From positions 298,537 to 362,536 of the forward strand of contig CAWFCE010000002.1 of the NCBI GenBank assembly GCA_963814275.1: a DNA stretch of 64,000 bases. The letters run 5' to 3'. The stretch comes from Candidatus Parcubacteria bacterium (GTDB taxonomy: Bacteria; Patescibacteriota; Patescibacteriia; Patescibacteriales; UBA12075). The notes beneath the pieces were generated by a model. That model searched no databases. It saw only the letters and a list, made by a program, of their open reading frames with translations, and was not told the origin of the DNA. The position numbers and the translations under genes are program-made. Numbering within the stretch: position 1 is the stretch's first letter; every line of letters begins with the position of its first letter. Of the stretch, positions 800 to 64,000 are shown in pieces.

Positions 800-2314
800 T
801 TATCGGGCGAATTCGATCACGCGCATTTCGCGGATGACATTGACCTTGATCTCACCCGGGTACTTGAGTTCGCTTTCGATCTTTTTGGCGATCTCGCGGG
901 CCAGGTTATAGGCTTCGATATCATTGATCTCTTCGGGTGTGACAAATACGCGGACCTCGCGGCCGGCCTGGATGGCGTAGGATTTGTCCACGCCGGTAAA
1001 TGAGCTGGCGATTTTTTCCAGCTCTTCCAGGCGCTGCAAATAGCGTTCGTAGGTATCGGAGCGGGCGCCGGGTCGGGCGCCGGACATCGCATCGGCGATT
1101 TTTACTATTATCGATATCAGTCCGCGCGGCTTATCTTCGTGGTGGGTTTCGATCGGGGCAATAATATCTTCGGGCAAGCCGAATTTTTTGGCGATATCGC
1201 GTCCGATTTCGGGATGCGTCCCCTGGACTTCGTGGTCAACCGCTTTGCCGATATCGTGGAGTAGGCCGGCTTTCTTGGCAATTGTTACGTCCGCGCCCAA
1301 TTGCTCCGCCAAAAGGGCGGAAAGGTGGGCGACTTCCAGCGAATGGCGCAAGGCATTTTGCCCGTAGCTGGTGCGGTATTTCAAGCGGCCGATGATCGAT
1401 ACCAGCTTCGGATCCAAACCGGCGATGCCCAGTTCATAGAGGGCGTCTTCACCCGCTTTTTTGATGTCCATTGCCAATTCCTTTTTGGCGTCCTCGATCG
1501 CCGCTTCGATCTTGGTCGGATGGATGCGGCCGTCGAGGATCAGTTTGTCCAGGGTTTTTTTGGCGATGTGGCGCCGGATCGGCGAAAAGCCGGATACCAG
1601 GATCGAATTGGGCGTATCGTCTACTATGATTTCCGTACCGGTCAGCTGTTCGATCACTTTGATGTTGCGGCCTTCCCGGCCGATGATCCGCCCTTTCATT
1701 TCGTCGTTGGGCAGATCGACTGTTGTGGTCGTGATCTCAGGCGTGAAATTGGAAACCAGGCGCTGCATTGTGCTGGCCATAAGTTCCCGTGATTTTTCTT
1801 CCAGTACATCGGTCGTTTCGTTCTCCAGTTTGCGCAGTCGCGACATCAGCGATTCCTGCATCTGGCCTTCGATGTTTTTCATGATCACTTCGCGCGCCTC
1901 GTCCTTGGACATTTGCGCGATCTTTTCCAGCTTGTCCAGCTGGTCTTGCTTGATCTGTTTGATTTTTTCTTTTACTTCTTCGACTTTGGCGATCTTGTCA
2001 TAGAGTTTTTGCTGTTTGTCCTGGAGTTCTAGAAGTTTTTGGGAAAAAACGGTTTCCCGTTTTTCTAGCCGTGATTGCAGGTTGCCGATATCCTGGCGCC
2101 GTTTTTTTTCATCCTGCTTGGCTTCCTCGATGATTTTCAATGCTTTTTCCTGGGCCTTGAGTACCAATTCGTTCTGCTTGTTCTTAACCTCAGTAAGAAT
2201 TTTTTCCGCCCTTTGTTCGGCGGATTTGATCTTGGTATCGATCCGTTGCTGCCTGATCCAGTAGCCGACAAAAAAACCACCCCCGAGGAATACGGCATAC
2301 AATACATATTCCAT
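800..2314 (-). CDS. rny: Ribonuclease Y
   Basis: 504 aa with an N-terminal TM helix, a long K/E-rich coiled coil, a KH domain (GRIIGREGRNIKVIEQLTG) and an HD domain (RHSLEVAHL...LLHDIGKA). Confidence 0.95.
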   Translation of the reverse strand: MEYVLYAVFLGGGFFVGYWIRQQRIDTKIKSAEQRAEKILTEVKNKQNELVLKAQEKALKIIEEAKQDEKKRRQDIGNLQSRLEKRETVFSQKLLELQDKQQKLYDKIAKVEEVKEKIKQIKQDQLDKLEKIAQMSKDEAREVIMKNIEGQMQESLMSRLRKLENETTDVLEEKSRELMASTMQRLVSNFTPEITTTTVDLPNDEMKGRIIGREGRNIKVIEQLTGTEIIVDDTPNSILVSGFSPIRRHIAKKTLDKLILDGRIHPTKIEAAIEDAKKELAMDIKKAGEDALYELGIAGLDPKLVSIIGRLKYRTSYGQNALRHSLEVAHLSALLAEQLGADVTIAKKAGLLHDIGKAVDHEVQGTHPEIGRDIAKKFGLPEDIIAPIETHHEDKPRGLISIIVKIADAMSGARPGARSDTYERYLQRLEELEKIASSFTGVDKSYAIQAGREVRVFVTPEEINDIEAYNLAREIAKKIESELKYPGEIKVNVIREMRVIEFAR

Positions 2315-2627
2315 ATTCGCTATAGATCTCTAAATCCAAGGAGTGGCAGTTATAACCTTTGTATTTTGCCGAATTACAAAATCGCCGATACCATATCGAC
2401 TGTATTGGCGTTCTTTCTGTTAGCGCCGGCGTATGCGATTTGTTGAGGCAAAATATGAATTATGAACACAAGATTGATATAAGTCGAAATTCGCTAAGGT
2501 TATACTTGATCTTTCATTTCCTCGGATTCGAGATTTTTATTTATTAATTCGTATCCTAATTATTTCAGGATCACAGTTTCTATACTAACACAGAGGGACC
2601 GGTTTGTAAAGCCGGGAGTTCGGCGAG

Positions 2628-3206
2628 TTATTTCACGATTATTTTATCGATGATCCCGTATTTTTTCGCTTCTTCGGTGCTCATAAAACGGTCGCGATCT
2701 GTATCTTTTTCCACTTTCACGATCGTCTGATTGGTGTGTTTGGCCAATATTTTATTAAGCTGATCCTTCAGCTTGAGGATATATTCCGCGCGGATCTTGA
2801 TATCGGTTGCCTGGCCCTCGAATCCCCCCATAATTTGGTGGATCATTACCTGGCTATTGGGCAGGGCAAAACGCTTGCCCTTGGTGCCTGAGGCCAGCAG
2901 GACCGCTCCCATCGAAGCCGCCATGCCGATACAAATCGTGGAAACGTCGCTTTTGACGTATTGCATCGTGTCATAGATCGCCATACCTGCAGTAACCGAT
3001 CCACCGGGCGTATTGATATAGAATTTGATGTCTTTGCCTTTGCTTTCGGCATCCAGAAAAAGGAATTGGGCAATAATGATGTTGGCCGTATGGTCATTGA
3101 TCGGTTCACCCAGGAATATTATCCGGTCTTTCAACAGCCGGGAATAGATATCGTAGGCCCGTTCGATATGGCCTGATTTTTCGATAACGGTTGGTATCAA
3201 AGGCAT
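2628..3206 (-). CDS. clpP: ATP-dependent Clp protease proteolytic subunit
   Basis: 192 aa. [19 protein letters not shown], the catalytic Ser region [17 protein letters not shown] and MIHQIMGG are textbook ClpP motifs. Confidence 0.95.
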
Positions 3207-25998: not shown

Positions 25999-26020
25999 TT
26001 ATATAAAATAATATATATTT

Positions 26021-26085
26021 GGGCGAGTGGTGGAATTGGTAGACACGCCCCGATTGCATCGGGGTGGCCGCACCCCGGTTTGTCG
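26021..26085 (+). pseudogene. tRNA-Leu-derived pseudo-tRNA (5' 28 nt identical to tRNA-Leu; anticodon arm replaced; no T arm)
   Basis: gggcgagtggtggaattggtagacacgc is identical to 26131-26158. It is followed by ccccg-attgcat-cgggg in place of the Leu anticodon arm, then tggccgca (shared), and then unrelated AT-rich sequence. Confidence 0.7.
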
Positions 26086-26130
26086 ATAAAGTATTAACAA
26101 CCATTTATTTTCAAACATATAATTACTTTT

Positions 26131-26214
<84 letters not shown>

Positions 26215-26384
26215 CGAAAACAACAATTGACAATTAACTTTTGACAGTTGACTGTTTTGTAAAGGCCAAGTTTCGCAAAACAGTGTTGACGATAGTTGTC
26301 GGAATAAATATATGGAGGTGTTTCTGAAATTGTTGAATGTTGTCTGGGTTAATTGTTAAATGTTAACTGTCAATTGTCGAAAAC

Positions 26385-26457
26385 GGACGCATAGCTCAGC
26401 TGGTAGAGCGCTTCGTTTACACCGAAGATGTCCGGGGTTCGAGTCCCTGTGCGTCCA
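26385..26457 (+). tRNA. tRNA-Val(UAC)
   Basis: Acceptor ggacgca/tgcgtcc, anticodon arm cttcg-ttTACac-cgaag, and T arm ccggg-gttcgagt-ccctg region. Confidence 0.85.
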
Positions 26458-26606
26458 CATCATAAAACTACCTGCACTCAGGTAGTTTTATGATGTGGAG
26501 GTATAGACTCCGAGAACCCTGCCTGATTATTCGCGTTATTTTTGTTAAATGATCATTTTATTTTCTAAATATTTTAGTTTCATCTTTCAATTTTAATTGA
26601 TGGCGT

Positions 26607-26641
26607 GGGGCTTCCGCCCCTTCGAGTCCCTGTGCGTCCAC
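26607..26641 (+). repeat. Duplicated 3' fragment of tRNA-Val preceded by the GGGGCTTCCGCCCC hairpin
   Basis: ttcgagtccctgtgcgtccac (26621-26641) is identical to 26438-26458 of tRNA-Val. It is preceded by ggggcttccgcccc (26607-20). Confidence 0.8.
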
Positions 26642-40867: not shown

Positions 40868-40975
40868 CGCTACGCTCCCGATAATGATTTCTGAGCGGGT
40901 AACCCCGTACGACTCGCTTACGCTCGCTACGGGGCAGGCGGGAATCGAAGGGGGCGGAAGCCCCAATCCATCATA
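40868..40975 (-). repeat. Degenerate 3' fragment of tRNA-Gly plus a duplicated 36-nt flank
   Basis: The 36-nt direct repeat cgctacgctcccgataatgatttctgagcgggtaac occurs at 40868-40903 and 41087-41122. Read on the minus strand, the fragment is ggggcttccgccccc-ttcgattccc-g-[ccccgta..tacgggg hairpin]-ttacccgctca. Confidence 0.75.
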
Positions 40976-41112
40976 AATCAATGGGCCGTGCAATTGTTAT
41001 GTTAAATTCTCAAGGTTGATTCGATAGTTTTAAAGCCTTTGGTCAGTCGGGTTCTCACCGAGACCCGCTCATAAATCACTATCGTCCGCTACGCTCCCGA
41101 TAATGATTTCTG

Positions 41113-41185
41113 AGCGGGTAACGGGAATCGAACCCGTATCTTCAGCTTGGAAGGCTAACATAATAAACCATTATACGATACCCGC
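41113..41185 (-). tRNA. tRNA-Gly(UCC)
   Basis: Minus-strand read: gcgggtatcgtataatggtttattatgttagccttCCAagctgaagatacgggttcgattcccgttacccgct, anticodon loop cttccaa = UCC. Confidence 0.85.
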
Positions 41186-41272
41186 AGTTTAGTTGAAAGT
41201 TATAAAGTATAAAGTTAAAAGTTTATTAGCAGGCTCTTTACAACTTGTCACTTGATAACTTTTAACTAAGGT

Positions 41273-41346: not shown

Positions 41347-41351
41347 GGATT

Positions 41352-41423
41352 CAAATGACGAATGTCGAATTACGAATGTCGAAAGATATCCCATTCGTCA
41401 TTCGAAATTTGTAATTCGACATT
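41352..41423. repeat. Heptamer-word hairpin spacer (gaatgtc/gaattac words)
   Basis: aaatgacgaatgtcgaattacgaatgtcgaaag / cattcgtcattcgaaatttgtaattcgacattt form an imperfect palindrome between tRNA-Pro and tRNA-Phe. Confidence 0.8.
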
Positions 41424-41430
41424 TAAATTG

Positions 41431-41502: not shown

Positions 41503-41505
41503 CAG

Positions 41506-41588
41506 AGAAAGTAGAAAGTATAAAGTTGAAAGTACAAAGTTATGGTATAAAATAGTACTTTTAACTTTCAACTTTATACTTTCTACTT
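41506..41588. repeat. Heptamer-word hairpin spacer (gaaagta/aaagttg words)
   Basis: agaaagtagaaagtataaagttgaaagtacaaagtt ... gtacttttaactttcaactttatactttctactt. Confidence 0.8.
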
Positions 41589-41593
41589 AATTG

Positions 41594-41666: not shown

Positions 41667-41675
41667 CTAATAAAT

Positions 41676-41741
41676 TTCGAATTACGAATGTCGAATTAGT
41701 AAATTTTTTTATTCGTCATTCGACATTCGTAATTCGTCATT
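41676..41741. repeat. Heptamer-word hairpin spacer
   Basis: ttcgaattacgaatgtcgaatta ... attcgtcattcgacattcgtaattcgtcatt. Confidence 0.8.
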
Positions 41742-41749
41742 TGTAAGTG

Positions 41750-41823
41750 TGGGCGCACATGGATTCGAACCATGGACCTCGTCCTTATCAGGGACGCGCT
41801 CTAGCCAACTGAGCTATGCGCCC
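41750..41823 (-). tRNA. tRNA-Ile(GAU)
   Basis: Minus-strand read: gggcgcatagctcagttggctagagcgcgtccctGATaaggacgaggtccatggttcgaatccatgtgcgccca. Confidence 0.9.
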
Positions 41824-42119
41824 GGTATTTTAAAAATAAATTTATTTAAGATTGTAAATATCATTAGGATTTACCCTGGCGGATAATAGAGCGAAATATG
41901 GACCCTTGCCCCGTCGGATGACGGGGTCGTCCTTATCAGGGACGCGCTCTAGCCAACTGAGCTATGCGCCCGGTATTTTAAAAATAAATTTATTTAAGAT
42001 TGTAAATATCATTAGGATTTACCCTGGCGGATAATAGAGCGAAATATGGACCCTTGCCCCGTCGGATGACGGGGTCGTCCTTATCAGGGACGCGCTCTAG
42101 CCAACTGAGCTATGCGCCC
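41824..42119 (-). repeat. Two identical 148-bp tandem units, each a tRNA-Ile pseudogene (intact 5' half, GC hairpin insert, decayed 3' half)
   Basis: The 5' half gggcgcatagctcagttggctagagcgcgtccctgataaggacga recurs ending at 41971 and 42119. It is followed by ccccgtc-atcc-gacgggg and ggtccatatttcgctctattatccgcc (compare ggtccatggttcgaatccatgtgcgccc). Confidence 0.85.
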
Positions 42120-42482: not shown

Positions 42483-44078
<1,596 letters not shown>

Positions 44079-44618
44079 GAAAAGTTTTTTGACAGGTTTA
44101 CTTGCCTGTTTAAGCAATGTTGTGTAAACACGAACAGTGCTTAAGGAATATATGAGGAAAATGAGTTTCCTAATTGTTTGTACTTGGTTGTTGCAAATTG
44201 GCGCTTATTAGCGCCATATTATATTCGGTTGTTAATGACCGCAAACGCGATAAATTTGCCTTCCCGCCAGATAAGCAAAAAACAGACCTTACAGCCTGTT
44301 ATCAAGTGTAAGCGGGTCGGTTTTTGGTTTTGTTTTTAGATTGTCATGGATTTATCGCAATTTGTTATTGCAATAATAATATTAAAGGATTTGCCGAAAT
44401 CTGTCAAGGCAATTCAGATAGTAGATAACGGATAGCAGATAGCAGCCAATTTTTTATTTAATATTAAATGATTTATTTAATAAACGAGCTAATATTAGTT
44501 TCCCGGGGTGTGATTAAGGAAAATTATAAATTTATATACAATCAAATTCCGGTTATTTATCAAGAGTATTTGCACAGGTTTTGAACATATTTAAAATGCG
44601 TTTTAAAAAAATTATTTT

Positions 44619-50223: not shown

Positions 50224-50341
50224 TGGTCAAGTGCTAAAAGTCAAATTCGGAGAGGTGGCTCGAGTGGTTGCCCGCGACATAGCCGCTTGGCGGCTCGCGC
50301 GGGTCCGCGCACCCGCGAAGCGGGATGTCGCGGAAAGGCTT

Positions 50342-50587
50342 ATGTATTATACATATTTTTTATTTAGTAAAAACCATAAAAAGGTTTATGTCGGTTCGAC
50401 CGAAGATTTGAAGACCAGAATCAAAACACATAATGAAGGCAGGGTGCAATCGACAAGATATTATCGGCCATGGGTAATTGTGTATTATGAGGCCCATCGC
50501 AATAAAACATTGGCAAGAAAAGCCGAACTTTTCTATAAATCCAGCCAAGGCAGGCGGCAAGTAAAAAAGAAATTAGGTTTAGAGTAA
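50342..50587 (+). CDS. Small GIY-YIG nuclease (81 aa; 82 codons incl. stop), copy 1
   Basis: MYYTYFLFSKNHKKVYVGSTEDLKTRIKTHNEGRVQSTRYYRPWVIVYYEAHRNKTLARKAELFYK... carries the GIY (YTYFL) and YIG (VYVGST) motifs, the conserved Arg and the conserved Glu. The track's upstream extension translates the tRNA fragment and hairpins, so I rejected it. Confidence 0.8.
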   Translation: MYYTYFLFSKNHKKVYVGSTEDLKTRIKTHNEGRVQSTRYYRPWVIVYYEAHRNKTLARKAELFYKSSQGRRQVKKKLGLE

Positions 50588-50697
50588 TATTATTATAGAT
50601 TTCCGGAGAGGTGGCTCGAGTGGTTGCCCGCGACGTAGCCGCTTGGCGGCTCGCGCGGGTCCGCGCACCCGCGAAGCGGGATGTCGCGGAAAGGCTT

Positions 50698-50943
50698 ATG
50701 TATTATACATATTTTTTATTTAGTAAAAACCATAAAAAGGTTTATGTCGGTTCAACCGAAGATTTGAAGACCAGAATCAAAACACATAATGAAGGCAGGG
50801 TGCAATCGACAAGATATTATCGGCCATGGGTAATTGTGTATTATGAGGCCCATCGCAATAAAACATTGGCAAGAAAAGCCGAACTTTTCTATAAATCCAG
50901 CCAAGGCAGGCGGCAAGTAAAAAAGAAATTAGGTTTAGAGTAA
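50698..50943 (+). CDS. Small GIY-YIG nuclease, copy 2
   Basis: The protein is identical to copy 1, with one synonymous tcg-to-tca change. Confidence 0.8.
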   Translation: MYYTYFLFSKNHKKVYVGSTEDLKTRIKTHNEGRVQSTRYYRPWVIVYYEAHRNKTLARKAELFYKSSQGRRQVKKKLGLE

Positions 50944-51053
50944 TATTATTATAGATTTCCGGAGAGGTGGCTCGAGTGGTTGCCCGCGACGTAGCCGCTT
51001 GGCGGCTCGCGCGGGTCCGCGCACCCGCGAAGCGGGATGTCGCGGAAAGGCTT

Positions 51054-51300
51054 ATGTATTATACATATTTTTTATTTAGTAAAAACCATAAAAAGGTTTA
51101 TGTCGGTTCGAACCGAAGATTTGAAGACCAGAATCAAAACACATAATGAAGGCAGGGTGCAATCGACAAGATATTATCGGCCATGGGTAATTGTGTATTA
51201 TGAGGCCCATCGCAATAAAACATTGGCAAGAAAAGCCGAACTTTTCTATAAATCCAGCCAAGGCAGGCGGCAAGTAAAAAAGAAATTAGGTTTAGAGTAA
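51054..51300 (+). pseudogene. GIY-YIG nuclease copy 3, frameshifted
   Basis: gtcggttcgAaccgaag has one extra base relative to copies 1 and 2, and the frame breaks right after the YVGS motif. Confidence 0.75.
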
Positions 51301-51317
51301 TATTATTATAGATTTCC

Positions 51318-51408
51318 GGAGAGGTGGCTCGAGTGGTTGAAGGCGTCGCTCTCGAAAAGCGATGTGCGTGCAAGCGTACCGGGAGTTCGAATCTCCCCCT
51401 CTCCGCCA
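51318..51408 (+). tRNA. tRNA-Ser(CGA), CCA encoded
   Basis: ggagaggtggctcgagtggttgaaggcgtcgctctCGAaaagcgatgtgcgtgcaagcgtaccgggagttcgaatctccccctctccgcca, with a long variable arm. Confidence 0.9.
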
Positions 51409-51559: not shown

Positions 51560-51798
51560 CCCTTCGACAGGCTCAGGGCAGGCCCTTCAGCTCAGTGACA
51601 CTTGCTCGGGGCAGACCCTTCAACATCGTACTGTTTGCTCAAGGCAGGCTGCCCGACTCTTAATTGATGGTTGAAAATTATTTTCCGCGTTTAATCCGCG
51701 TATTGATCAGCGTCCAATCAGCGGTAGAATGATTGATTGTTCGACTGCCGTGAATATCGTGGAAGCGGTAAAAAACTATCGTTCAAGGGTAATATTGT

Positions 51799-57789: not shown

Positions 57790-58482
57790 ATGCATGAAGT
57801 TCGCAGCTTAGCGAAACGGATTGGCGTCTCCTTTGACGACATCGATCTGCTCAGGCAAGCAGTAGTCCACCGTTCTTATTTGAACGAAAATCCCCAGTTT
57901 CCCCTGCCGCATAATGAACGTCTGGAATTTCTCGGCGACGCGGTATTGGAAATTATCGTAACCGAATATTTGTTCAAGCATTTTCCGGAAACACCGGAAG
58001 GTGATCTGACCAATTGGCGGGCCAGCCTGGTCAATTCCAAGATGCTGTCGATAATAGCGAATGAGATCGGCCTAGAAGATTACTTGTATCTATCGAAAGG
58101 GGAAGCGAAAGACAGCAACACCAAGGCCAGGCAGTATATTCTGGCGAACGCGGTCGAAGCGCTTATTGGCGCAATTTATCTCGACCAGGGGATAAAGGTG
58201 TCTAAAAAATTCGTCAAAACCAATATAATAGATAAGCTCGAATATATACTGGAAAACCAACTATATCTTGATCCAAAATCCAAATTCCAGGAAAAAGCCC
58301 AGGAAATATACAAGATAACCCCGCATTACAAAGTGCTGTCCGAAGTCGGACCGGACCATGCGAAAGTTTTCGAGGTCGGATTATATTTGAATGACAGATT
58401 GGTCAGCCGGGGCAAGGGTTCGAGCAAACAGGAGGCGCAGGTCAAGGCGGCGGATAAGGGATTGAAGAAAATGGAATGGTGA
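57790..58482 (+). CDS. rnc: Ribonuclease III
   Basis: Signature NERLEFLGDAVLE, followed by the C-terminal dsRBD (KSKFQEKAQE...GKGSSKQEAQVKAA). Confidence 0.9.
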   Translation: MHEVRSLAKRIGVSFDDIDLLRQAVVHRSYLNENPQFPLPHNERLEFLGDAVLEIIVTEYLFKHFPETPEGDLTNWRASLVNSKMLSIIANEIGLEDYLYLSKGEAKDSNTKARQYILANAVEALIGAIYLDQGIKVSKKFVKTNIIDKLEYILENQLYLDPKSKFQEKAQEIYKITPHYKVLSEVGPDHAKVFEVGLYLNDRLVSRGKGSSKQEAQVKAADKGLKKMEW

Positions 58483-60120: not shown

Positions 60121-60544
60121 GATAATTACCAAATAAAGACAAAATTAATAGTAATCATCTTTTATGAGTTACTCCATAACTACTAAATGCAAAAGCGGTT
60201 GATGCACTAGCTGGTTTAAAGTGTGGTCAAACCGCTTTAAAGCGGTTTTTTGTTTCAAATCTGGCTTAGTCCTTTCAATTAAAGAGAAAAACGGTCCAAT
60301 CGAATTCAGGAATCTATTAATCAACTCGGATGCTGTGAAAACAAATTCGGAGCATCCGGATATAGTTCGTAGATTCGGATTATGAGTTGAACTTTAACAA
60401 TTCAATATAGTCCGCAGTTCCCGACAGAACTGCGGACAATTAAGAGCATCAAACCATCCGGCATCGCAATGCCGGATAATCGAAGAGTCCGTTCATAGAG
60501 CGATCTATGGACAAAAACGTTTTTGAAACCAAAAACGTGGGAAA

Positions 60545-64000
<3,456 letters not shown>

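Follow-up and report, generated by a model that had tools for sequence, protein, structure and literature searches.

What is the short insert that separates an intact tRNA-Val gene from a second, exact copy of its 3′ end in the 64,000-nt stretch of a Candidatus Parcubacteria genome analysed here (hereafter, the window), and how might it have come to lie there? Islands that integrate into tRNA genes (tDNA) are recognised by the combination of a regenerated gene and a displaced 3′ fragment (PMC4383910, Islander database), which bears out the initial annotation of this locus in its reading of the displaced tRNA 3′ end as a mark of integration; furthermore, mycobacteriophage Ms6 has its attB in the T-loop of tRNA-Ala (PMC1762012). 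Here, we describe what is apparently an undescribed family of non-coding cassettes of ~180 bases that reside in the T-loop of many Patescibacteria tRNA genes and of a tmRNA gene. On balance, we consider the insert behind tRNA-Val to be probably one copy of such a cassette, non-coding, non-autonomous, ~180 nt long and specific for the tRNA/tmRNA T-loop in Patescibacteria.

The insert behind tRNA-Val

The tRNA-Val(tac) gene that hosts the first unit (winVal) is intact (26385–26458, plus strand, identified with ARAGORN; Rfam tRNA at 26385–26457, 69.7 bits). Its last 21 nt, from T54 to the 3′ end (TTCGAGTCCCTGTGCGTCCAC, 26438–26458, plus strand), form the left edge of the unit and the first copy of the direct repeat, denoted C1. 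The identical 21-mer recurs at 26621–26641 (plus strand) as the displaced second copy from T54 to the 3′ end, C2, with a spacing of 183 nt, confirming the direct repeat of the tRNA-Val 3′ end first noticed by eye; the base that follows is not the same at the two copies (a versus g).

All parts between the two copies lie on the plus strand. Immediately 3′ of tRNA-Val is a 16-bp stem-loop (H, 26459–26494), the hairpin that had been seen to open the insert; its pairing reaches into TCCAC of the tRNA, giving a 28-nt inverted repeat that is 89% complementary, and a simple terminator scan did not flag it as a terminator. The next segment, A (26495–26521), is an imperfect inverted copy of tRNA-Val positions ~49–73, that is, of the acceptor 3′ strand and the T-arm, as judged from alignment to the reverse complement of the tRNA and from folds. 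The loop part of A is CCGAGAAC, and the segment with 'ccgagaaccctg' is part of this inverted copy of the tRNA's own 3′ third. In folding, A has alternative partners, C1 (giving a long hairpin) or C2 (giving a panhandle). It is followed by the left conserved box, CCTGATTAT (26522–26530; family consensus YTGAKYAW, from the alignment), by the AT-rich interior of segment B (26531–26597), the length but not the sequence of which is conserved between units, and by the invariant right end, TGATGGCGTGGGGCTTCCGCCCC (26598–26620). The latter contains a 5-bp/4-nt hairpin, GGGGCTTCCGCCCC (26607–26620), which directly abuts C2, as originally described. Given that the trailer after C2 (…caaatgacgagttacgaat…) resembles the trailers of other tRNAs of the same genome, it is C2 that lies in the native context.

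A second unit behind tRNA-Gly

The only other exact copy of GGGGCTTCCGCCCC in the window lies on the minus strand at 40951–40964, behind tRNA-Gly(tcc) (41112–41185, minus strand; ARAGORN, Rfam). This second unit (winGly, 40950–41132 as a whole) is built, entirely on the minus strand, from C1 (41111–41132), the trailer plus a loop (41085–41110), an inverted copy of the trailer, acceptor strand and T-arm (41047–41084), the box CTGACCAA (41039–41046), and the end TGATGGATTGGGGCTTCCGCCCCC (40950–40973), with the interior between box and end. Here, the direct repeat also takes in 24 nt of the trailer, and its second copy is interrupted: the first part of C2, TTCGATTCCCG (40939–40949), is separated by an inserted 36-nt GC-rich hairpin (40903–40938) from the second part, TTACCCGCTCA, with the 24 nt of duplicated trailer (40868–40902). 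The two units have in common a stem-loop that includes the tRNA 3′ end, the GAGAACCC block and the end TGATGGnnTGGGGCTTCCGCCCC, in agreement with the earlier observation that the Gly insert has the same terminus and a similar block.

A family of units in Patescibacteria

Public genomes and metagenomes were scanned with the end motif GATGGNNTGGGGCTTCCGCCCC as the sole query, without any tRNA sequence, so that nothing about tRNAs was built into the search. The genome scan returned 8 loci, 6 of them in Patescibacteria MAGs (Falkowbacteria, Parcubacteria and others) and the other 2 being chance matches within GC-rich coding DNA. Of the 24 loci in the metagenome scan, 11 are GC-rich (56–76% G+C) chance matches, mostly copies of a single unrelated sequence, with no tRNA 3′ fragment behind the motif; the remaining ~13 are on AT-rich, CPR-like contigs. 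At every AT-rich locus, the motif is directly followed by a tRNA or tmRNA 3′ fragment that begins in the T-loop, and the matching tRNA lies ~145 nt upstream of the motif, intact wherever the contig reaches far enough. The displaced fragment starts at T54 in most units, at G52 or G53 in three (L015, L017 and the tRNA-Cys unit of L010) and at C56 in L018. In total, the scan yielded ~22 units, all in Patescibacteria-type DNA, and no matches to the unit end were found in viral contigs, phage records or plasmid records.

The hosts comprise at least 16 kinds of tRNA gene, including Val(tac, cac), Leu(taa, caa, gag, tag), Tyr, Glu, Ser(cga), Trp, Lys, Cys, Ile(tat) and Gly(tcc), and one tmRNA gene (L029). 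Adjacency searches, without an exact match to the full motif, added two extra units, the second unit of L006 and that at tRNA-Cys of L010, which have ATGACGG in place of ATGATGG and an identical hairpin; the invariance of the unit end is, in part, an ascertainment effect of the exact-pattern search. Thus, many further copies exist in public genomes and metagenomes, and the original proposal of one family of small, ORF-less elements tied to tRNA T-loops is borne out. Searches with Rfam 15, in gathering mode for the whole window and in E-value mode for both inserts, matched only tRNAs, any other matches in the inserts being weak chance matches far below the gathering scores. Full-text literature searches found no description of the units, only of group I introns in Patescibacteria tRNAs (PMC13011429).

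Anatomy of the unit

All units are 170–188 nt long, counted from the first base of C1 through the last base of the end hairpin, and their parts follow one another in a constant order: C1, H, A, the YTGAKYAW box, ~85 nt of AT-rich DNA, TGA(T/C)GGNGTGGGGCTTCCGCCCC and C2. The suggestion that the inserts are deletion remnants, one of the options considered initially, does not survive this comparison, since the constant size and anatomy exclude remnants of random deletion. C1 runs from T54 to the 3′ end and belongs to the working tRNA. H is a stem-loop, the usual form of which, as seen by eye in most units, is an A-tract, a GC stem and a T-tract; the tRNA-Leu unit of L010 has none. A corresponds, imperfectly, to the reverse complement of a tRNA segment bounded by about position 49, at the base of the T-stem, and about position 73, together with trailer sequence. 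It aligns in this manner in nearly all of the 15 aligned units, with L027 matching in the trailer and acceptor part only. Because A is the reverse complement of the tRNA 3′ part, C1-H-A folds as one long hairpin. This fold-back is absent at all tRNAs without the hairpin motif in the same loci, indicating that A belongs to the unit. In most units, A begins 36–40 nt past the tRNA 3′ end, as against 22 nt at the tmRNA, and the end hairpin begins at +142 to +153 (+135 at the tmRNA), with the exception of L021, where a partial second copy of tRNA-Ser intervenes and the hairpin is at +231.

By contrast with the ends, the interiors cannot be aligned between units, even between two units within one genome: winVal and winGly have only the boxes in common, as do the Leu and Cys units of L010. 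Alignable interiors are found only in related genomes (L003 and L004, 90%) and in a tandem pair (L006, 76%). Given that copies in the same genome share only the boxes, there is no sign of recent bursts of transposition. RNAalifold, applied to a MAFFT alignment, detected no structure other than the invariant 5-bp hairpin; since H and A cannot be aligned by sequence, the long hairpin was missed and the result is silent on it.

No conserved ORF was found in any unit. The only shared frame, a micro-ORF MxWGFRP, was rejected on account of conservation at the nucleotide level without synonymous variation: TGGGGCTTCCGCCCC is invariant, the sole variable site of the frame is a second codon position, and the tails vary with the tRNA. 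Reverse-strand ORFs in the units were rejected as well. Among RNA motifs, a box C/D-like K-turn (YUGA with AUGAUGG) and a pairing of the GAGAA loop with the UUCC loop were discarded, with no consistent complementarity or covariation in ~10 units inspected by eye, and a hammerhead was discarded because CUGAUGAG occurs in L015 only. Finally, a split-tRNA or BHB-intron reading was rejected, with neither a complementary leader nor a bulge-helix-bulge seen by eye and the gene being complete without splicing.

Target-derived parts and a family-specific core

Judging from the sequence comparisons, C and A, and sometimes H, are local sequence, and the core, consisting of box, spacer and end, is specific to the family. 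The direct repeat spans 19–21 nt in most units, 45 nt in winGly and ~60 nt in L006, where it covers the whole hairpin. The host trailer is included in both the direct repeat and the inverted copy in winGly, L006 and L036; the last of these was reached through GIY-YIG homologues and has the layout C1-H-A-X-C2, where X is an unrelated 68 nt. C2 and C1 differ at 12 positions in 336 nt (96% identical), and A is ~20% off an exact inverted copy. A single copying event followed by neutral decay does not fit this combination of near-identity and divergence; one possibility is that C2 is held constant by constraint or homogenisation, the other that selection maintains A as an imperfect palindrome. Moreover, the T-loop part of A is xGAGAAy in at least 12 units on different tRNAs, whereas the exact complement would be TCGAA, so that at least this part of A looks inherited or selected rather than copied from the target. 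Damaged versions of C2 are also found, with a 36-nt insertion in winGly, a mutated T-loop in L021 and three changes in L031.

A direct-inverted-direct arrangement of ~25 nt, trailer included, is the expected product of fold-back and template switching. Thus, the units could be scars of repair, whereby breaks in the T-arm, produced, for example, by nucleases targeting tRNA genes, such as the GIY-YIG proteins encoded beside tRNAs, would lead through fold-back priming and template switching to a triplication of the 3′ end, direct plus inverted, with filler. The same layout with a different interior in L036 and a partial fold-back without B in L015 are in line with this explanation, and so are the abundance of other partial tRNA duplications in the window, one of which holds a GIY-YIG gene, and the presence of another GIY-YIG gene just upstream of the unit-bearing tRNA in L015. 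However, filler would not be expected to end in the same 23 nt, to include the conserved left box and to keep a fixed length in ~22 independent cases, spread over different tRNAs and different genomes, and a GIY-YIG gene is located near only 1 of the 18 unit-bearing tRNAs. We regard an origin of the units as repair scars as improbable.

Strand asymmetry and the fold of the sense strand

Outside the T-loop, 54 of the transitions by which A departs from the exact tRNA complement keep G-T/G-U pairing on the tRNA-sense strand, compared to 16 such transitions for the opposite strand (binomial p = 6e-6). The sense strand also folds better in most units (−60.7 versus −53.6 kcal/mol for the window copy). 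Together, this asymmetry and the better folding indicate a single-stranded form of sense polarity, which could be RNA or the non-template strand of the DNA. Alternatively, the G-T bias may have a mutational cause, C-to-T deamination of the non-template strand. The trailer RNA of winVal is predicted to fold into H plus an A:C2 panhandle that encloses the GC hairpin (−60.7 kcal/mol, z = −6.4); this panhandle is the alternative fold, in which A pairs with C2 once the tRNA has been folded or cut off. The promoter scan found no promoter inside the units above the background rate. A unit of L010 must be transcribed through, given that the next tRNA begins 5 nt past its C2.

Could the unit, then, be a module selected by the host rather than a parasite? 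Such a module would provide a strong stem-loop or terminator for the tRNA gene together with a tRNA-sense RNA in which an acceptor/T-stem-like helix of A and C2 closes a loop of ~110 nt. This RNA could be excised by RNase P and RNase Z, or by RNase III, and would serve as a tRNA mimic, a decoy, a spare 3′ fragment or a regulator of tRNA maturation. Such a role would account for a C2 that is 96% identical to the tRNA 3′ end despite interiors that cannot be aligned, for the conservation of the 23-nt end, the GAGAA loop and the unit length, and for the maintenance of sense-strand pairing via G-U; it is consistent also with the predicted panhandle of the window trailer RNA (z = −6.4), with transcription through the L010 unit, and with a putative RNase III ORF in the window (57790–58482; sequence read by eye). 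Nevertheless, only 2 of the 10 window tRNAs carry a unit and the carriers are different tRNAs in related genomes, unlike what is expected of an essential function; C2 is damaged in winGly, L021 and L031; the interior has no conserved sequence or structure; H is terminator-like in most units and would halt transcription ahead of A; and no promoter was detected within the units. Overall, selection of the unit by the host appears rather unlikely.

Gain and loss of units

In L010, the order rplS, tRNA-Leu(gag), tRNA-Val(tac) is that of the window, with ~72% nucleotide identity in coding DNA. L010 has units behind Leu and Cys and none behind Val, whereas the window, in which 2 of 10 tRNAs are occupied, has one behind Val and none behind Leu or Cys. 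Thus, empty counterparts of filled sites, such as an insertion of the kind first annotated implies, do exist; in L017, furthermore, a filled tRNA-Val(tac) has the same 3′ end as the empty site of L010. Units also occur in tandem, with unrelated interiors in the L022 pair and related ones in the L006 pair, and the units of L031 and L009 are 81% identical, with unrelated flanks. The differing occupancy among related genomes implies that units are gained and lost, on the time scale over which genera or families diverge. A search for an empty site at strain level, by exact matches to the flanking proteins (EncFtn-like, L19), retrieved only short contigs from one sample, which break at the repeats, and Logan contigs of the same sample stop ~100 nt from these repeats.

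Relationship to known systems

The nearest known systems are the tDNA-integrating islands (PMC4383910, PMC1762012), which share with the units the regeneration of the target and the displacement of a fragment. In both cases, the element splits the target in the T-loop and makes good the missing 3′ end, leaving the displaced fragment to mark its far boundary; tmRNA genes are among the targets, sites can be occupied in tandem, and presence varies among relatives. The islands, however, measure kilobases, whereas the units are ~180 nt long, with no integrase and no genes. The reading of the two repeat copies as attL and attR holds only in part: the regenerated tRNA with a displaced direct-repeat fragment stands, in all units recovered with both copies, whereas neither an integrase gene, within the element or in a full-length relative, nor inverted core sites were found. 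A full-length relative carrying an integrase, as envisaged in the initial annotation, did not emerge, all units recovered with their tRNA being short. In addition, a single invariant end goes together with at least 17 distinct tRNA or tmRNA 3′ ends, each matched exactly. Unlike the case of the islands, these multiple 3′ ends are accompanied by an inverted copy of the target, a junction that floats by ~2 nt and, in some units, a repeat that reaches into the trailer, none of which would be predicted for one integrase with one attP. Symmetric tyrosine-recombinase core sites are absent as well, given that …CGCCCC to the left of T54 is constant, whereas the right strand of the T-stem varies with the tRNA.

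One way to reconcile small size with an island origin would be that the units are leftovers of islands or prophages integrated in the T-loop by tyrosine integrases and deleted almost completely, so that attL, a stub and attR remain. Integration of this kind is classically recognised by a regenerated tRNA gene and a displaced fragment that begins in the T-loop, with tmRNA genes as another classical site (PMC4383910; PMC1762012). Such islands are also known to form tandem arrays. The uniform size of 170–188 nt and uniform internal order, as well as the failure to find an integrase-bearing relative, speak against this origin, as do the invariant …GCCCC to the left of the T-loop, which is not an inverted partner of the variable 3′ strand of the T-stem, and the inverted copy of the target, which is not a part of att sites. 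Island leftovers are, accordingly, largely refuted and, in our estimate, highly improbable.

MITEs and small bacterial repeats, such as Correia/NEMIS, RUP and RPE, are small, non-coding, form hairpins or panhandles and are presumably moved in trans. The units resemble them as small non-coding DNA that forms a long hairpin or panhandle, is presumably moved in trans, lies in non-coding DNA and does not kill the neighbouring gene. The initial description of the inserts as MITE-like is thus a loose fit, apt with respect to small, non-coding and non-autonomous DNA and inapt in other respects. The long inverted repeats of the units (A versus C1/C2) are local copies of the target and not sites for a transposase; a short target duplication of fixed length is lacking (the repeats are 19–21, 45 or ~60 nt); the 2–3 copies available per genome fragment are unrelated outside the boxes; and insertion takes place at a motif of genes for structured RNAs. 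Neither a parent IS nor any other parent element was found. In short, the units have neither the integrase and symmetric core sites that define islands nor the shared TIRs and short, fixed TSD that define MITEs.

Another group of systems, including integron attC sites, the ends of IS200/IS605 elements and their PATE derivatives, and CTX phage with Xer, recombine a folded single strand. Like these, the units have a long hairpin with a conserved structure and little conserved sequence, a strand asymmetry of mismatches, and subterminal hairpins. A further parallel is the short conserved box that marks the cut site, G|TT for attC compared with G53|T54T55 for the units, whereas the order of the boxes is the reverse of that in attC, for which reason the attC analogy was rejected. 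Compared to ends of the IS200/IS605 type, the units have hairpins at both ends and a junction at G53/T54 (±2), with the left hairpin derived from the target. Folded-strand systems do not duplicate 21–60 nt of the target, whereas the units do.

Two further systems involve tRNA genes directly. Phage T4 SegB is a free-standing GIY-YIG homing endonuclease encoded in a tRNA gene cluster (PMC2330249), a setting similar to that of the GIY-YIG genes located directly at tRNA genes here (tRNA-Ser of the window, L035, L036 and L015), which, in these genomes, are flanked by displaced tRNA fragments. Unlike these GIY-YIG cassettes, which lie on the 5′ side, the units contain no ORF and have no sequence in common with them; an obligatory link in cis between units and GIY-YIG genes was rejected (1 of 18 units). 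Group I introns are found in Patescibacteria tRNA and tmRNA genes (PMC13011429; bioRxiv 10.1101/2025.07.03.662931), that is, in the same phylum and the same class of target genes as the units, and mostly lack a homing endonuclease gene. However, these introns interrupt the gene at position 35/36 and require splicing, whereas the units leave a complete gene upstream and duplicate the target; moreover, the units are too small for group I introns and match no Rfam intron model.

Other tRNA duplications in the window

Apart from the two units, the window contains several partial tRNA duplications on the 5′ side: the first 28 nt of tRNA-Leu at 26021; the first 45 nt of tRNA-Ile, twice, in tandem units of 148 nt; and the first 22 nt of tRNA-Ser, three times, in tandem units of 356 nt, each of which holds a GIY-YIG gene (PF01541, E = 7e-16), frameshifted in the third copy. 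These duplications mirror the T-loop units: in addition to a new 5′ part, they supply a promoter (for example, a promoter-like site at 26094–26123), and a GC-rich hairpin directly adjoins the displaced fragment. The proteins of the window and the loci syntenic with it are indicative of Patescibacteria/CPR. The window further includes a 16S gene of 1599 nt and, starting 16 kb away from it, a 23S gene that is ~650 nt beyond the Rfam model over the part seen.

A candidate mechanism

Three observations are at odds with a classical integrase attP: no integrase-bearing relative was found, the sequence to the left of T54 is invariant and non-symmetric, and the target is present in an inverted copy. 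In conjunction with the uniform size and order, this misfit favours a non-autonomous, T-loop-specific cassette. The cassette is located at or beside position 53/54 of the gene. The tRNA gene is kept whole, with the left part of the cassette (C1) re-supplying the sequence from T54 to the 3′ end, whereas the native 3′ end (C2) is displaced ~183 nt downstream and retains the native trailer; the invariant 23-nt end with its GC hairpin abuts T54 of C2. We propose that a trans-acting enzyme, encoded outside the unit, would recognise the T-arm of any tRNA-like gene as well as the invariant end, and that the same putative enzyme would insert the cassette at the T-arm. The tRNA-specific parts, C and A, would be copied from the target at insertion, or homogenised later, rather than carried between sites. 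The intermediate or product would be single-stranded and of tRNA polarity, with C1-H-A forming a long hairpin or, alternatively, with the pairing of A and C2 closing a panhandle.

A more far-reaching version of this scheme is conceivable, even if we lean against it, namely, that the ~110-nt core (left box, spacer and hairpin end) is a mobile element of an undescribed kind, which recognises the T-arm of any tRNA-like gene, copies the 3′ end of its target both directly and inverted, builds its own matching 'ends' anew at each site, and yields a tRNA-mimic RNA as a by-product. The twofold copying of the target might proceed, for example, by fold-back priming or through a single-stranded RNA or DNA intermediate, and the acceptor/T helix of the by-product RNA would be composed of A and C2.

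Implications

Patescibacteria have tiny genomes, in which most tRNA genes are single copy. Repeated, non-destructive entry into tRNA and tmRNA genes is a way for selfish or regulatory DNA to persist in such streamlined genomes. In doing so, the units create pseudo-tRNA fragments and long palindromes that break assemblies, and can mislead tRNA annotation as well as programs that locate islands by their displaced tRNA fragments. Should the tRNA-specific parts prove to be copies of the target, the units would represent a new mechanism of insertion that reads the structure of an RNA gene, not its sequence, and the 23-nt invariant end would offer a handle for finding the enzyme. If, instead, the A-B-C2 transcript is functional, it would constitute a new class of tRNA-like RNA.

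Duplications on the 5′ side of tRNA genes

Three tandem units of 356 nt (window 50249–51317, plus strand) precede tRNA-Ser (51318–51408), each containing the first 22 nt of the tRNA-Ser, a GC-rich multi-hairpin segment of ~65 nt and a GIY-YIG gene (PF01541) for a product of 81 aa, which in the third unit carries a frameshift. Homologues of this gene in other Patescibacteria (L035 and L036, public loci compared with the window) end 1–6 nt 5′ of a tRNA-Ser, and these cassettes, too, have a displaced tRNA 5′ fragment upstream. The L035 locus further encodes a serine recombinase (Resolvase; 2050–2747, plus strand), the gene for which starts ~200 nt 3′ of the GIY-YIG-bearing tRNA-Ser, in the terminal part of a 112-kb contig.

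Two other tRNA genes of the window are preceded by pieces of themselves. Upstream of tRNA-Ile (41749–41823) lie two tandem 148-nt units (41824–42119, minus strand), each of which comprises tRNA-Ile positions 1–45, the hairpin CCCCGTCATCCGACGGGG, ~8 nt more of tRNA sequence stopping near the T-loop, and a remainder of ~95 nt that includes a promoter-like TTTACA…TAAAAT. Upstream of tRNA-Leu (26131–26215), the stretch 26018–26127 (plus strand) begins with a pseudo-tRNA-Leu made up of the first 28 nt of the tRNA, the hairpin CCCCGATTGCATCGGGG, which replaces the anticodon arm, and the variable-arm sequence TGGCCGCA; 3′ of these pieces is a strong promoter-like site for the real tRNA-Leu gene (TTAACA-18-TATAAT, 26094–26123).

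Duplications on the 3′ side of tRNA genes in other loci

Several of the compared loci carry T-loop units or similar structures, in which C1, the segment from the T-loop (usually T54) to the 3′ end of the intact tRNA, recurs downstream as a displaced copy, C2. The flanks of tRNA-Ser(gct) in L036 hold a GIY-YIG cassette on the 5′ side and, on the 3′ side, the order C1, hairpin, inverted copy, X and C2 (1812–1992, plus strand), where X is an unrelated interior of 68 nt replacing the usual B core and the junction is at A58; this structure folds at −94 kcal/mol (z = −10.7). In L015 (4700–5600 and 5615–5842, both minus strand), a GIY-YIG ORF is located ~30 nt upstream of the unit-bearing tRNA-Glu, and C2 is followed by a second hairpin and by 12 nt that repeat the acceptor strand perfectly in inverted orientation, without a B core. 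In L021 (1–380, minus strand), tRNA-Ser(cga) is complete, but the unit belongs to another tRNA-Ser copy downstream of it, which is truncated at the 5′ end; in the C2 of this unit, the T-loop sequence is TGAGAAT.

The second copy of the 3′ half of tRNA-Val(gac) downstream of the gene in L011 (1750–2132, minus strand) begins at the anticodon stem and is broken by two GC-rich hairpins. It has neither a fold-back nor the GGGGCTTCCGCCCC end and is thus a tRNA 3′ duplication of another kind.

Spacers and rRNA genes of the window

The spacers flanking tRNA genes (26216–26384, 41186–41272, 41348–41429, 41503–41592 and 41667–41748) are made up of short repeats of the GACAATTAAC/TGTCAATTG, ACGAAT/TCGAAT and AAGTTGAAAG types, laid out as inverted repeats between adjacent genes, a style also seen in L004 (Falkowbacteria). 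A GC-rich stretch after tRNA-Arg (51562–51670, plus strand) contains repeated CCCTTCA(R)C motifs and a terminal CTCTTAATTGATGG; TTAATTGATGG occurs both here and at the end of the Val unit, but the stretch lacks a hairpin and a tRNA fragment.

A five-tRNA array adjoins the 16S rRNA gene (42486–44084, minus strand; 1599 nt), which is unlinked to the 23S rRNA gene, being 16 kb away on the opposite strand. The latter (60541–64000, plus strand) spans 3460 nt for model positions 1–2813, ~650 nt more than the model, and thus probably holds insertions or introns.

A possible family of GC-rich hairpin insertions

A 36-nt GC-rich hairpin, CCTGCCCCGTAGCGAGCGTAAGCGAGTCGTACGGGG, interrupts the displaced tRNA-Gly fragment as an insertion (40903–40938, minus strand). 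Given that similar GC hairpins recur in other pseudo-tRNA pieces, namely, those of Leu and Ile in the window and that of L011 (1750–2060), they suggest that small GC-palindrome insertions form a family of their own.
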